Positions 25,605 through 36,795 of a DNA stretch of 64,000 nucleotides are shown here, in pieces. Made by a program: the position numbers and the translations under genes. Every line of letters starts with the position of its first letter. Position 1 is the first letter of the stretch. The notes under the pieces were generated by a model. It was given only the letters and a program-made list of their open reading frames with translations. It did not search any database and was not told the DNA's origin. Origin of the DNA: a virus; the IMG/VR virus record IMGVR_UViG_3300021512_000005, positions 1 through 64,000 of that record; one strand, 5' to 3'.

Positions 25605-25718
25605 TTAATTAAGATTTTTAAATTTCTTTAAAAATTTTATTTTTTTTAAATTTTGTTTAAATTTTGGACCAATATATTTTCTACCATTCGTATCATCAAA
25701 TATTACTTTTACTACCAT
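25605..25718 (-). CDS. 37-aa micro-ORF coupled to an ART gene (candidate immunity peptide)
   Basis: TAATG overlap; MVVKVIFDDTNGRKYIGPKFKQNLKK…*. Confidence 0.5.
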   Translation of the reverse strand: MVVKVIFDDTNGRKYIGPKFKQNLKKIKFLKKFKNLN

Positions 25719-27115
25719 TATTCTAACCTCTTTCTAAATTCTGCTGCTGTTATTTTACCTTCAGATGTATCAAGTATAATATCTTCAAGATTAAATTTCA
25801 TAATTTTATTTGGAAGTAATGTTACTTCTTGTTCAGGAAACCCAGAACCAGAAACAGCATAATGCATTACAACATTATTGAGATATTCTTTTTTTGGAAT
25901 TTTATATTTAATACTTTTTACTTTAATTCCTTTTATTGTTATAAATCCTTCCATTTTTTCACTAAAAACATCAGCCACATGTTCACTTTCACTCCAACAT
26001 GACATGTGTCCAATTGAATCAATATCTATTGTTTTTGCTTCTAATGGTAAATTAATAATTGCATTTATAAAACTTTCTCGTGCTGAATATTTTGTTTCAC
26101 CTCTATAAATATACTCATTACCATTTTTTTCTGCATATTCTTTTGCACCAGTTATTAAAAGATCTAATGCATTTTTATTTATATCTTTTAATTCAAGTTC
26201 ATTATTCATATATTTTTTTATTAATGCACCAACTTTATTCATCCCAAGTCCATATTCATTATACCACAAGTCAGTAATATTTTGTGCTCTTTCAATTAAA
26301 TAACTTTCTTCACGAGGTATTTCATCTTCTATTTTTGAAAAAATTGTTTTTGGTTTATTTTCTATTAATTCATTAGGTTTTTGTACTTCTTTTTTTATAC
26401 GTTCTAATAATAAATTTTTATTTGATTCTATAGTAGCAGTTGAATGACAAAATGCTTTTATAAGATTATCAGGATAAAAATTTGTTACTATTTTTATTTT
26501 TTCACCAGCATTACTTTCTTTTACAGATGGTGATTTACCAGAAAACATACAAGGATCATCAAGAGATATAAAATAATCTCCAATAAACATTTTATTATCT
26601 TTAAAATTTACTAAAATTTCTTTATTATTAATTTTAATTTGTAAATCACCATTATCTAAATCTTTTGTTTCAACATGTGAACGTTTTAATTCATTTTTAA
26701 TTGATTTTTTCACATATTCTTCATATTTTTCTTTAGAAATATAAGTTAATGGTAAAAAATTTTTTTCAATATATTTATATGCATTTATTTCTTCTTCTGT
26801 TTTTAAAATTTTTCCACTTTGTATTTTTTTTATAAAATCTAAAAGACCTTGTTCTATATTAAGACCTTCTTTTGTTACAAATTTTGAAAAATTTTTTGAT
26901 TCTGTTGTTGGAATATTTGGAAATGCTGCATTAGCAAATATAAAAATATCATTTTTTGAAATTTTCATAATTTTTGATTTATTAACAAAAAGTTCATCAT
27001 CATGACCAACTTCTGCTTCACGCCAATATGCCTTATGTTTTGGTGAAGCAGGTACATAAATTTTTTTACGACTTTTTGCTTTTGCAAGATTTAATAATGA
27101 TATTTCTATTTTCAT
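25718..27115 (-). CDS. Leader-bearing ADP-ribosyltransferase-like effector
   Basis: Leader MKIEISLLNLAK…IYVPASPKHKAYWR; R-S-E motifs IYRGE / SCWSE / PEQEV. Confidence 0.7.
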   Translation of the reverse strand: MKIEISLLNLAKAKSRKKIYVPASPKHKAYWREAEVGHDDELFVNKSKIMKISKNDIFIFANAAFPNIPTTESKNFSKFVTKEGLNIEQGLLDFIKKIQSGKILKTEEEINAYKYIEKNFLPLTYISKEKYEEYVKKSIKNELKRSHVETKDLDNGDLQIKINNKEILVNFKDNKMFIGDYFISLDDPCMFSGKSPSVKESNAGEKIKIVTNFYPDNLIKAFCHSTATIESNKNLLLERIKKEVQKPNELIENKPKTIFSKIEDEIPREESYLIERAQNITDLWYNEYGLGMNKVGALIKKYMNNELELKDINKNALDLLITGAKEYAEKNGNEYIYRGETKYSARESFINAIINLPLEAKTIDIDSIGHMSCWSESEHVADVFSEKMEGFITIKGIKVKSIKYKIPKKEYLNNVVMHYAVSGSGFPEQEVTLLPNKIMKFNLEDIILDTSEGKITAAEFRKRLE

Positions 27116-27128
27116 TTTCTATCTCCAT

Positions 27129-27287
27129 TTAAATTTCACTTGTTCTATAATAACCTCTATTAAATTTTTTAATAACTTCATCTTTATTCAGTTTTAAATC
27201 TTTAAATATTCCATTAAAATTTCCATTATTCCATCTATCAATTTCAATTGCTTTTTTAGGTGTAAGTCTATATATTATTATTGTCAT
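27129..27287 (-). CDS. 52-aa ORF after the kinase pair (candidate immunity protein; not in track)
   Basis: GGAGGT RBS; MTIIIYRLTPKKAIEIDRWNNG…FNRGYYRTSEI*. Confidence 0.6.
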   Translation of the reverse strand: MTIIIYRLTPKKAIEIDRWNNGNFNGIFKDLKLNKDEVIKKFNRGYYRTSEI

Positions 27288-27308
27288 TTATATTACCTCC
27301 TATAAATT

Positions 27309-34362: not shown

Positions 34363-34437
34363 TTAATTTTTATTTTTAGATTTTTTCATCCAAAATTTAT
34401 TTTCTTTATCTTCATCAATATTTGGTAATAATTTCAT
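34363..34437 (-). CDS. 24-aa micro-ORF coupled to an ART gene (candidate immunity peptide)
   Basis: ATGA overlap; MKLLPNIDEDKENKFWMKKSKNKN*. Confidence 0.55.
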   Translation of the reverse strand: MKLLPNIDEDKENKFWMKKSKNKN

Positions 34438-35720
34438 TCTACTATATCCTCACGATTTATTTTAATTTTTTTATCTTTATTTGCAACAATAAATTCATAT
34501 TCTGCATTACCACCAAATTGATAATCTGTCATACGAATATAAGGTGAAGTAAAATAACTAAATAATATATCTTTAATTGGAATTTCTTTTTTAATAATAA
34601 CTCCTTCACCTTTTGCTGCAAAATCACGTGCAATTGATTTATCAGATGTCCATGATGATGTAACATAACAATCTACCATAATATTTTCATCTTTTTTTAA
34701 TTCTGATTTAATAAGATCTGCATAATCTCCTTGGACTCCACGATATAATGTTATAGTATCTTTATTCTTAAATCGTTTTTTAAGATCTTTTTGTGTTCTA
34801 TTTACTTCTGAATAAAATTGATTAACTGCATTTTGATTTAATTTATTTATTAAATTTTCATGATCACCAATTAATTGAATTTTATTATATAATTTATTAT
34901 TTTCTATTTCTTTTATTCTTTCATTAATAGCTTCAACATAAGCATGATCATCTTTATATTTTTCAGCATATTTTTTTAATTCATTATATTCTCTTTCTAA
35001 TTTATTATCTAAATTTGGAATTTTAGTTTCATTATTATTTAAATATGCTTCTGTTAATTCATTTAAATAAAATGATGTTCCTATTGTACTTTTATATGAT
35101 TCTAAAGCACTACTTATAATATTATTATCTTCTGTTAATTTAGCATTTTTAAAATTTCCACCAGTTTTAATTTTTTCTAATTGATTATAATGATTATTTA
35201 TAGTTTCTATAATTTCTGGTATTTCTTTAATATCTTTACCAAACCATTCTTTTTTACCAATTACAACTTTTCCTGTAAAATATGTAACATTACCTCCAGA
35301 TTTTGGAAAATAACCTGTCTCACGACTAATATAAACTTCATCATTACCAATTTTTAATTTTACTGAATTAGATTTTAATGTTTCTAAATCAACATCATAT
35401 TTATCTGTTATATCTAATTTTTGATTAAATTCATTTAATCCTTGAATTATAAAAGTATTCTTATTATTTTTTTCTTTTTCTTTTTGACCAAGTCTCTGCT
35501 TACGTTGAAATGTTTTTCCTTGACGATGAACTGTTACATAACCTTCATGAGTTCCTCGTTCATCTTTTAATAAATTTAAATTAATTTCTATTTTATTCAC
35601 CATAATAGCCTTATGTTGTGCTAATGCTTCTTTTTTAGTTGGAAAACATGATATTATTTTACCTTTATCTTTTCCATGACAATGAATTGTACAAAATTTA
35701 TTATTAATTTTCTTTATCAT
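34434..35720 (-). CDS. Leader-bearing ADP-ribosyltransferase-like effector
   Basis: 42-aa N-terminal module, then KIEINLNLLKDERGTHEGY…; LYRGV / TSSWTS / AEYEF. Confidence 0.75.
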   Translation of the reverse strand: MIKKINNKFCTIHCHGKDKGKIISCFPTKKEALAQHKAIMVNKIEINLNLLKDERGTHEGYVTVHRQGKTFQRKQRLGQKEKEKNNKNTFIIQGLNEFNQKLDITDKYDVDLETLKSNSVKLKIGNDEVYISRETGYFPKSGGNVTYFTGKVVIGKKEWFGKDIKEIPEIIETINNHYNQLEKIKTGGNFKNAKLTEDNNIISSALESYKSTIGTSFYLNELTEAYLNNNETKIPNLDNKLEREYNELKKYAEKYKDDHAYVEAINERIKEIENNKLYNKIQLIGDHENLINKLNQNAVNQFYSEVNRTQKDLKKRFKNKDTITLYRGVQGDYADLIKSELKKDENIMVDCYVTSSWTSDKSIARDFAAKGEGVIIKKEIPIKDILFSYFTSPYIRMTDYQFGGNAEYEFIVANKDKKIKINREDIVE

Positions 35721-35799
35721 TCTCCAACCTCATATTTTTTCGTAACCAATTACGATTAATTGCTTCATCATCAATTTTAATAGTTTTTATTTTTTTCAT
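35704..35799 (-). CDS. 31-aa micro-ORF coupled to an ART gene (candidate immunity peptide)
   Basis: ATGA overlap; MKKIKTIKIDDEAINRNWLRKNMRLENDKEN*. Confidence 0.55.
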   Translation of the reverse strand: MKKIKTIKIDDEAINRNWLRKNMRLENDKEN

Positions 35800-36725
35800 A
35801 ATTCATCACCAAATGATACATCATCTTTATAAATAGTAATAGGATTTGAAGATATTGTAAATTCTCTTTCACTGAATATATCAGATAAACCCCAAAATAA
35901 CCAAATATCTTTTTTTGGAAATGAGTGTCTAATAATTATTCCATCCTTCATTGCAAAGGCTTTTGCAATATTAAAACGTTCTGACCATGATGATAAAGAT
36001 GCTAATTCTACTTTACATTTTCCATCTTTATTTAATGTTTCTTTAATTTTTTCAGCTCTATTTTCTTTAATTCCACGATATAATTTTATATTATCTGTAT
36101 TTGGAAACATTTTATCTATAACTTGATCAATAAATTTTTTCATTGCAATAACTTTTTGTAAATAATTTTTATCTAATGCTTTTTCTTTAAGAGTATCTTT
36201 TAATTTTTCAATATCAATATCATTTGGTAAATGTGTATCTAAATTTTTTCCAGTTAATTCATTTATTGCTATTTGTAATTTAACAGAATCTATAAACTGT
36301 GGATTATCAAAAAATTTTTCAACACTTTCTTTAACTGAATTATCTTTTATATTTCCAGCATAAAATGTAATATCATCAAACATATTTTTAAATTCTATTG
36401 CACCTTTTGTAAGTTCAACAGGCACATGAATTTGATGATCTTTAAATCCAATATCTTTCCATGTTTGAAATAAATTTGTCCAATCCCAATCAATTCCTAT
36501 TTCTTTAAATTTATTTGAATATTTATTTAATTCATCACTGAAATCTAAAGAATCATAATATTTTTGATATTCTTTTTTAACAAATAATTTTTCTTTCCTA
36601 TTTTCTTCTTTTCTACCAAGCCGCTGTTTACGTTGAAATATTTTACCTTGACGATGAACTGTTACATATCCTTCATGTATTCCACGTTCATCTTTTAATA
36701 AATTTAATAAATTAATTTCAATCAT
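35796..36725 (-). CDS. Leader-bearing ADP-ribosyltransferase-like effector
   Basis: Probable start MIEINLLNLLKDERGIHEGY… at 36725; LYRGI / LSSWSE / SEREF. Confidence 0.75.
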   Translation of the reverse strand: MIEINLLNLLKDERGIHEGYVTVHRQGKIFQRKQRLGRKEENRKEKLFVKKEYQKYYDSLDFSDELNKYSNKFKEIGIDWDWTNLFQTWKDIGFKDHQIHVPVELTKGAIEFKNMFDDITFYAGNIKDNSVKESVEKFFDNPQFIDSVKLQIAINELTGKNLDTHLPNDIDIEKLKDTLKEKALDKNYLQKVIAMKKFIDQVIDKMFPNTDNIKLYRGIKENRAEKIKETLNKDGKCKVELASLSSWSERFNIAKAFAMKDGIIIRHSFPKKDIWLFWGLSDIFSEREFTISSNPITIYKDDVSFGDEL

Positions 36726-36795
36726 CTTTATCTTTATTTTCTTTATTAATAAATATAAAATCTTCAAATTGCCCAACAAATTTTTTTTGATCCAT
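36718..36795 (-). CDS. 25-aa micro-ORF coupled to an ART gene (candidate immunity peptide)
   Basis: TAATG overlap; MDQKKFVGQFEDFIFINKENKDKDD*; its stop overlaps the next effector start. Confidence 0.55.
   Translation of the reverse strand: MDQKKFVGQFEDFIFINKENKDKDD

Follow-up and report, generated by a model that had tools for sequence, protein, structure and literature searches.

The closest described system to the one reported here is that of Bxa, a prophage MuF-fused ADP-ribosyltransferase (ART) toxin that has been found experimentally to be blocked by a small adjacent binding protein, Bsi, modelled in its active site (PMC11699363). For MuF toxin genes, 89.4% of 191 were followed by an open reading frame (ORF) of under 150 amino acids (aa) (Jamet et al. 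2017, PMC5576092). Here, we describe a 64,000-nucleotide (nt) stretch of viral DNA (positions 1 to 64,000 of IMG/VR record IMGVR_UViG_3300021512_000005; hereafter the window), in which four leader-tagged ART genes, ART1 to ART3 and the tentatively assigned ART4, are each followed directly by a micro-ORF of 24–37 codons, m1 to m4. We propose that the micro-ORFs encode cognate ART-binding peptides that hold the enzymes inactive in the phage-producing cell, and we put the chances of this reading being right or wrong at about equal. What we observed directly is that the ORFs exist and have start signals, that m2 is conserved, and that a motif shared by m2 and m3 recurs beside ART2/3-like domains.

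The two systems are alike in having an arginine-type ART in a phage head-morphogenesis region and an adjacent small ORF, whose product binds and blocks the toxin in Bxa–Bsi and would do so here. However, Bsi has at least 92 residues (judged from mutants K89 and E92), against 24–37 aa for our peptides, and Bxa also has an enzymatic ARH-type immunity protein, of which none was seen here. Moreover, Bxa is MuF-fused, whereas the ARTs of the window stand alone, carry leaders, and belong to a multi-effector array. The MuF polymorphic toxins offer a second likeness, with head-module toxins and small downstream ORFs proposed as immunity genes, and the window has a MuF–zincin gene in its array. In that study, however, these ORFs were tallied only as under 150 aa and not analysed as families, whereas here a motif of ~20 residues tracks one ART type and also occurs in cis or fused.

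Interbacterial ART toxin–immunity pairs provide a third parallel, in that an ART-fold toxin domain has a cognate protein encoded beside it. The PDB entries of this kind matched by our model of a related phage ART domain (locus L021, below) were 6drh ("ADP-ribosyltransferase toxin/immunity pair"), 8s2m (TreX–TriX), and 8za7, at Z 4.1–5.6. The immunity proteins of such pairs neutralize their toxin, but they are folded domains in systems delivered by type VI secretion or Rhs, whereas here we have micro-peptides and a phage capsid. In phage T4, the ART Alt and other internal proteins enter the head by virtue of an N-terminal capsid-targeting sequence; the prohead protease processes them, and they are delivered along with the DNA. 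A type II toxin–antitoxin module was considered and rejected. In such modules, the antitoxin gene lies upstream of the toxin gene, and a DNA-binding domain of the antitoxin autoregulates the operon; here, the peptide gene comes after the ART gene within a late structural operon, peptides of 24–37 aa are too small to accommodate a DNA-binding fold, and the larger partners had no Pfam domain.

It is poorly understood how injected head enzymes such as ARTs do no damage to the cell in which they are made or to the phage under assembly, and gene callers skip ORFs of 24–37 codons, so that phage annotation could lack an entire class of cognate micro-inhibitors. Our full-text literature search found no micro-peptide inhibitors of phage ARTs, which is no proof of their absence, and the term "immunity protein" does not appear in Iyer 2017. 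A toxin with an adjacent small immunity gene is already known (Bxa–Bsi, MuF toxins). What is new here is the micro size (24–37 aa), a defined short motif, and a cis/trans modularity in three formats: as a free gene, as an ART tail, and at the front of the packaged protein or protease that follows.

Micro-ORFs with start signals fill the spacers behind the ART genes

The original prediction, read from the letters of the window, had placed a tiny ORF behind every ART gene, in ATGA or TAATG overlap with the ART stop codon, and both the ORF list and our reading of the junctions bear this out for all four (Table 1). At its other end, m1 overlaps the ART2 ATG at 36725 with its TGA (ATGATTGA), m2 overlaps the Shine-Dalgarno sequence (SD) and start of ART3, and m3 stops just ahead of the SD of the next gene. 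The remaining array is packed with overlapping stops and starts, and the sole spacers behind ART genes are those that the micro-ORFs fill.

An SD-like tetramer lies 7–10 nt upstream of all four micro-ORF ATGs, compared to 8.9% of 3,160 ATGs contig-wide and 10.1% of 1,289 coding-strand ATGs outside long frames; such a site precedes at least 45 of the 80 long ORFs. Only 3.6% of the 1,289 background ATGs combine an SD with at least 24 open codons. The m1 and m3 sites are formed by GAG, which makes up 18 of 396 Glu codons (4.5%) in 14 head genes, and the m4 site by AGG, used 9 times against 75 uses of AGA. Because a start-stop overlap, an SD, and an open frame coincide at four of four ARTs and the spacers are exactly filled, chance is not a reasonable explanation, and the micro-ORFs look like real translated genes.

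The predicted resemblance between m2 and m3 also stood up, as a 14-column local alignment (shuffle p about 0.024), and m3 aligned with the version of m2 in a more distant locus, L012, at p 0.0085. Pairwise similarities among m1, m4, k52, and the others were not significant, except k52 vs. L012 m2 (p 0.041). A hydrophobic-[DE][DE] start common to the four peptides was dropped as evidence, as we estimated it too likely by chance in a D/E-rich composition. Small ORFs behind the zincin, JAB, and kinase-pair genes, likewise foreseen, are present (z88, j71, and k52).

Table 1. Positions of the micro-ORFs, ART genes, start signals, and neighbouring features in the window
Feature	Position	Strand	Details
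m1	36718..36795	minus	25 aa; TAATG, ATG shares one base with ART1 TAA
m2	35704..35799	minus	31 aa; ATGA overlap with ART2 stop
m3	34363..34437	minus	24 aa; ATGA overlap with ART3 stop
m4	25605..25718	minus	37 aa; TAATG overlap with ART4 stop
SD-like GAGG of m1	36803..36806	minus	7 nt before ATG; rare codon GAG
SD-like GGTG of m2	35807..35810	minus	7 nt before ATG
SD-like GAGG of m3	34448..34451	minus	10 nt before ATG; rare codon GAG
SD-like GAGGT of m4	25726..25730	minus	7 nt before ATG; rare codon AGG
ART1	36795..37472	minus	225 aa; leader + ADPrib_exo_Tox-type ART; Pfam PF03496 1.1e-12, PF01129 1.9e-8
ART2	35796..36725	minus	309 aa from ATG at 36725; leader + Ser-Ser-Trp (SSW)-type ART; Pfam DRAT 2.8e-6, 27.1 bits
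ART3	34434..35720	minus	428 aa; 43-aa pre-leader module + leader + SSW-type ART; DRAT 4e-5, 23.4 bits
ART4	25718..27115	minus	465 aa; variant leader + tentative R-S-E ART domain; hhalign only
k52	27129..27287	minus	52-aa ORF behind kinase pair; SD AGGAGGT
z88	32243..32509	minus	88-aa ORF; ATGA overlap behind zincin-like 306-aa gene
j71	30871..31086	minus	71-aa Cys-rich ORF behind JAB-like gene
10-nt direct repeat GAAATTTAAA	25617..25626	minus	downstream edge of ART4+m4 cassette; 10 letters fit either side of joint
Second copy of 10-nt repeat	27128..27137	minus	upstream cassette edge, end of k52
Terminase	39760-41115	minus	
Portal	37459-39090	minus	Pfam Phage_portal 4.6e-33
Peptidase_S78 prohead protease	24635-25576	minus	
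SU10-type major capsid protein	22861-23904	minus	

m2 is conserved and stays with ART2

Searching metagenome contigs for the portal yielded 11 loci for comparison. The near-identical relative (L001/L008) keeps 30 of the 31 m2 residues (97%), with 3 synonymous changes and 1 non-synonymous change. In L012 and L013, where the portal is 56–57% identical, an ART2 orthologue (71–73% identical) is followed by a 37-aa ORF that is 58–61% identical to m2 overall. Within the first 22 residues, 18 are invariant over four copies of m2, compared to the 71–73% identity of ART2, and the window and L012 differ by synonymous-only changes at D10, R16, and R20 and by a 3-nt in-frame indel. By these comparisons, m2 is under protein-level constraint.

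The m2-type ATG in L012/L013 lies 3 nt past the ART stop and in the ART frame, whereas m2 in the window overlaps the stop in another frame. In some contigs of metagenome runs X2 and X3, a one-base insertion shifts the ART2 stop, and the m2 start is kept. Thus, the ATG and SD of m2 persist although their frame relation to ART2 varies between lineages, which argues that the peptide start is independent of ART2. ART3 comes next in the window and L001, whereas L012/L013 have a MuF gene downstream of m2; as the downstream gene changes while ART2 stays, m2 travels with ART2.

The m2/m3 motif recurs after ART2/3-like domains in other phages

The common part of m2 and m3 spans ~20 residues: a short hydrophobic strand, an acidic pair, and then N-[RK]-x-W-[LM]-[RK], or phi-D-x-[DE]-x-x-N-[RK]-x-W-[LM]-[RK] in full. 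Scans with ART2/3-family alignments gave eight further viral loci (L018–L025, of which L018/19, L021/22, and L023/24 are near-duplicate pairs), and several carry the motif in other formats. In L021/22, a 978-aa MuF–topoisomerase IB–ART protein ends, about 15 residues past the ART domain, in a tail with the motif. The 799-aa double-ART protein of L018/19 ends in TAA, and the next codon opens a 462-aa XkdF-protease–ART protein with the motif in its first 22 residues. In L025, the ART end forms an ATGA overlap, behind a GAGG SD, with a 398-aa gene whose m3-like N-terminus precedes a leader-like Gly-rich segment, and in L020, the gene that follows has its start 13 nt within the ART gene, preceded by GGAGG, and shows a looser version. 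The motif thus occurs as a free micro-ORF, as a C-terminal ART tail, and at the start of the packaged protein that comes next. It is kept in contigs of 25% to 39% G+C, with a looser match in L025 at 55% G+C.

A strict regular expression, composed after we had viewed the sequences, gave 16 matches in 527,144 six-frame residues, all directly after ART2/3-like domains and amounting to five distinct cases (m2, L012-type m2, m3, the fused C-terminal tail of L021/22, and the protein N-terminus of L018/19). With m3 as a query, the post-ART gene of L025 ranked 1st of 761 ORF N-termini (shuffle p 0.0016), and with the L018 N-terminus, L025 was again 1st (p 0.0044) and L020 3rd. A profile of m2 and m3 searched against 1.84 billion representatives found 2 matches, both of the m2 types, a result that is little informative as ORFs so short are rarely called.

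The ART3-type domains of the m3, L018, and L025 group are 45–65% identical to each other. By their sequences, m3, L018, and L025 form a subgroup matching ART3-type domains, and m2 pairs with the ART2 type. Together, m2 and m3 belong to one peptide family found behind ART2/3-type domains irrespective of the downstream gene, as a cognate partner should be. The small genes move with toxin type in several respects: the motif is found solely after ART2/3-like domains, m2 stays with ART2, and ART4 and m4 come and go as a unit; the m1 link is weak. Being tied to one ART type, whether in cis or in trans, the motif could serve as a handle for finding partners elsewhere and might point to small ART inhibitors.

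The ART domains and a predicted ART2–m2 complex

All four ART genes lie in an array between the portal and the Peptidase_S78 protease. ART1 belongs to PF03496; its six homologues (34–66% identity) all end in ..EE[IL], with KLEE[IL] in five of the six. The Pfam DRAT cut-off is 25 bits, so that ART2 (27.1) lies above it and ART3 (23.4) below. For ART2, a longer TTG-started frame has no SD, and we took the ATG at 36725 as the start. Among ART2 orthologues, R217, S245-S246-W247, and E286/E288 are invariant, and the pattern R / S-x-W-S / E-x-E is invariant in both the ART2 and ART3 families, meaning that the catalytic residues are intact. Both domains also hold every strand after the ExE motif. Homologues of ART3 were found as P0001–P0004. 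Single-protein scans of viral contigs found no relative of ART2, ART4, or ART1, and ART3 matched L001 alone.

The fold of the ART2/ART3 type was assessed through the related L021 domain, whose AlphaFold2 model has a mean predicted local distance difference test (pLDDT) of 71. A structure search (VIA) with this model returned HopU1 (Z 6.0, root-mean-square deviation 3.4, 90 aligned), TreX (Z 5.6), and ExoS (Z 5.3); the top rows were almost all ART enzymes, at modest Z values, which places the domain in the ART superfamily. Foldseek of the same model against the PDB gave no row at E <= 0.001.

ART4 has no Pfam match. Compared with an ART2/3 profile by hhalign, it aligned at YRG/SCWSES/EQE with E 5e-4 and a probability of 31%; no homologue was found among 8,000 scored candidates and no PDB sequence match below E 0.2.

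We modelled ART2 residues 45–309 (3-row alignment) with m2 (4 rows), using small alignments of our own for which the calibration is only rough, and obtained a complex score of 0.63 (three runs: 0.62, 0.63, and 0.64), compared to 0.01 for the best of 3 controls. In calibration, 58 of 80 solved complexes came up to the mark set for such scores, as did 2 of 110 mismatched pairs. The ART2–m2 runs share at least 66% of contacts. On the m2 side, the predicted interface is formed by residues 4–13, which are the strand and acidic pair common to family members. On the ART2 side, it takes in R217 (the catalytic Arg), 219–220, 223–234, 236–242 (a strand), S245-S246 of the SSW motif, 265, 295, and 297. 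In this model, m2 would bind the catalytic face of ART2.

The m1 and m4 peptides and other small partners

ART1-like domains occur in two further viral loci. That of L030 is fused to a portal, with an ATGA overlap and GGAGG as the SD; that of L031 belongs to a MuF polyvalent protein. The genes that follow have weakly m1-like N-termini (K-F ... [DE]-F-x-F; shuffle p 0.028 and 0.033), ranking 1 and 3 of 838 ORF N-termini against m1. A tblastn search with m1 returned neither of these N-termini, its sole match at E up to 1 lying elsewhere in L031 (E 0.93). The gene after the L031 ART1-like domain, a 72-aa ORF (2905–3123), is a full homologue of j71 (tblastn 3.9e-4).

ART4 and m4 behave as a unit. 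Contigs of three of four runs join position 25616 to 27128, and ART4 is gone together with m4 save its last 12 nt; L001 carries the shorter form without ART4 and m4. The two genes are jointly present or absent between direct repeats, so they make up one cassette.

The other small ORFs have varied relatives. k52 is 90% identical in L001 and 57% in L007, whose kinase is just 38–42% identical. For z88, there was no Pfam match and no relative among the compared loci. The j71-type Cys-rich domain of ~70 aa is promiscuous, being free after the JAB-like gene in the window, free after an ART1-like domain in L031, and fused before the leader in P0013, an ART1 homologue that carries the j71-like domain ahead of its leader.

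How the peptides might act

In the proposed mechanism, the N-terminal strand and acidic pair of the peptide would be laid against an edge strand of the ART domain. The bound peptide would reach the catalytic Arg and the Ser-Ser-Trp motif that binds nicotinamide adenine dinucleotide (NAD), leaving the producing cell with an inactive enzyme. Protein processing in the capsid, or unfolding and ejection into the next host, would lift the block. Inhibition and the mode of its release are what we infer here; an inhibitor or immunity role is plausible, and the kind of peptide appears to match the ART type in front of it.

The original prediction had gone further, taking all of the micro-ORFs as cognate immunity peptides that protect the producing cell and are left out of the virion. 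The immunity part survives to a degree: the genes look real, the m2/m3 family tracks ART2/3-type domains, and the ART2–m2 model passes its controls, whereas the m1 link is weak and m4 is tied to ART4 by joint gain and loss. Conservation behind homologous ARTs, named as a check, was found for m2 and, in unrelated viral contigs, for the m2/m3 motif, with weak counterparts for m1 and none for m4, and, for the named check by complex models, the one cognate pair modelled, ART2–m2, scored above its controls with a pLDDT of only 52–54 for m2. By contrast, exclusion from the virion is unsupported, as elsewhere the motif forms the C-terminal end of a MuF-fused ART or opens a prohead protease or a leader-bearing cargo protein. 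Because it sits inside packaged proteins in other phages, the peptide is probably not simply excluded from the virion. This suggests instead a release tied to processing or ejection.

A wider version of the proposal is that virion-delivered toxins have a safety catch in the form of a portable peptide of ~20 residues, specific to ART type, which plugs the NAD-binding face and is released with capsid maturation or ejection. In evolution, it would shift freely among three formats: a free micro-protein, a C-terminal tail of the ART, and a pro-peptide of either the prohead protease or the packaged protein that follows. We regard this tentative version as somewhat unlikely. If true, phage effectors delivered by injection would be under a zymogen-like control, exerted by immunity genes that are among the smallest known.

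Several points weigh against inhibition by cognate peptides. In the complex model, m2 itself has a pLDDT of only 52–54, its most conserved residues (N-R-x-W-L-R, 15–20) fall outside the confident interface, and E286/E288 of the ART2 ExE motif are not among the modelled contacts. When the L021 ART domain was modelled by AlphaFold2 with its natural cis tail, the tail was not docked, and residues 151–180 had block-mean pLDDT values of 36–50 (151–168 under 50). The motif evidence has its own weak spots besides the post hoc composition of the strict expression. With m2 as a query, the L025 and L020 N-termini rank just 117–148 and 31–44 of 761; a hidden Markov model of the five motif segments did not retrieve the L025 and L020 post-ART N-termini; and L023/L024 show no clear motif. 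The similarity of m1 to the L030/L031 genes is weak, and m1 may be a short relative or a truncated remnant of a j71-like gene. No sequence relatives of m4 were found among the compared loci, its last three codons and stop are resident spacer sequence, and the ART4 in front of it is itself only tentatively an ART. A motif that is part of packaged proteins in several phages is a poor fit to an antitoxin that stays behind, and T4 Alt is packaged without a known cognate inhibitor peptide. Finally, shuffling of the array via leader recombination would carry any 3' flank along with its ART, and linkage alone is no proof of function.

Alternative explanations

One alternative is that the peptides bind the ART without inhibiting it, either contributing a strand that helps it fold or stabilizes it, or tethering it to the packaged protein that follows or to the prohead protease for co-packaging or ordered release. 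The formats found in other phages speak for it, as the motif is the N-terminus of a protease or leader-bearing cargo in L018/19, L025, and L020 and the ART's own tail in L021/22, and P0004 is a direct protease–ART fusion. The modelled edge-strand addition would suit such a structural role as well as it suits a plug. However, free peptides of 24–37 aa are too short for a second binding function, ART1–3 have their own leader, the ART2/3 domains are already complete in strands after the ExE motif, and the modelled contacts take in the catalytic Arg and the SSW motif. We consider this alternative unlikely, if a serious candidate; even if non-inhibitory, the peptides would mark a new binding module that organizes capsid cargo. 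As an observation on protease–ART fusions, the one in P0004 joins Peptidase_S78 to a DRAT-like domain, and another in L018 (3334–4722) joins an XkdF-type protease to an ADPrib_exo_Tox domain.

Cognate ART binding must also be set against a translational relay, in which ribosomes coming from the ART stop restart on the micro-ORF and pass to the next gene, the product having no function. The array is indeed tightly coupled throughout, with the m1 stop overlapping the start of ART2, which has no clear SD, and m2 overlapping the SD and start of ART3. Still, a relay needs no conserved amino-acid sequence, yet the motif persists across a range of G+C with synonymous changes and is also fused in frame to other proteins, and we find this explanation improbable.

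A similarly slim chance attaches to the idea that the micro-ORFs are junction leftovers, that is, cut-off pre-leader segments or j71-like genes of the downstream gene, conserved only while the junction is young. Pre-leader modules do exist (the N-terminal 43 aa of ART3, kept in L015, and the j71-like domain of P0013), the likeness of m1 is confined to the opening ~20 aa of longer proteins, m4 terminates within resident spacer, and there are many recombination joints in the array. Against this, the constant neighbour of m2 and m3 is the upstream ART type, and the downstream gene varies; SD sites made of rare codons argue for maintained translation; and m2 is kept across lineages at 56% portal identity.

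Although 20.5% of the 1,289 background ATGs open at least 24 codons and m4 and m1 have no strong relatives, it is scarcely credible that these frames just happen to be open in AT-rich spacers, given a stop-overlapping ATG, SD, and open frame at four of four ARTs against the 3.6% background with SD and length, and given the conservation of m2 and the motif.

The head module and its enzyme array

The source of the window is a single 73,039-bp contig of 25% G+C, of which the window is the first 64 kb. The contig is phage-like, and the window is its head-gene module, with the minus-strand order of terminase, portal, a 12-kb enzyme array, prohead protease, a scaffold-like gene, and major capsid protein. 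The array enzymes, which lie between portal and prohead protease and have an N-terminal leader common to all, are ART1, ART2, ART3, two zincin-like proteins (one fused to MuF; Phage_Mu_F, 1.4e-16), a JAB-like protein, two kinase-like proteins, and ART4. These enzymes are probably packed into the capsid and injected, with the leader as a putative signal and its processing as a presumed step.

DNA runs containing this stretch are labelled as hydrothermal-vent and marine-sediment metagenomes, and none of the runs listed for it is recorded as RNA. Among phage GenBank records, the portal had remote matches only, at 19–26% identity, to phages of Arthrobacter and tailed viruses of Haloarcula. The host may be unusual. 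No relative of the portal, and likewise none of the ART3-type domain, was found in a collection of genome contigs, and these patterns gave no prophage copy. A scan with the leader DNA pattern had its true match in the L001 contig only; matches in L002 and L003 sit in unrelated genes and were rejected as chance.

Population contigs contain many recombination joints across the array, which suggests frequent shuffling of cassettes. In the kinase region (27277–28155 and 28042–28910), population contigs lack the second kinase gene, with a joint from 27276 to 28156 in three of four runs, as in L001. A 44-aa ORF at 31571–31705 (minus strand), in a 338-nt gap after the JAB-like gene, is a lone copy of the cargo leader without an enzyme.

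The C-terminus of the prohead protease, K-I-E-I-D-L-D-E-L, resembles the first residues of the cargo leader, and a zincin-like cargo protein in L015 (2153–3151) ends in K-I-E-I-N-L-N-K-L. On this resemblance, the first strand of the leader may be a shared docking or cleavage element. The ART3 leader is preceded by a 43-aa Cys/His-rich segment (35592–35720, minus strand), which is also kept before a different, zincin-like cargo in L015 (about 2290–2420). In L001 (7031–7189), it is a 52-aa stump followed by foreign-looking DNA.

Between the terminase and a 128-aa gene (39098–39484) ahead of the portal, the window has a 42-aa ORF at 39485–39759 (minus strand). It starts with M-I-E-V-E-I-K and had no SD in our scan; it is kept in L001 and L006. 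The portal of the window is uninterrupted, unlike that of five relatives (L006 2304–4817, L007, L011, L014, and L001 3534–6005), in which a JAB-like gene of ~250 aa with its own variant leader lies inside the 3' part of the portal. In these relatives, the last ~55 portal residues form a separate ORF of 81–113 aa, with a new N-terminus and an I-K-I-D-D stretch like that of m2.

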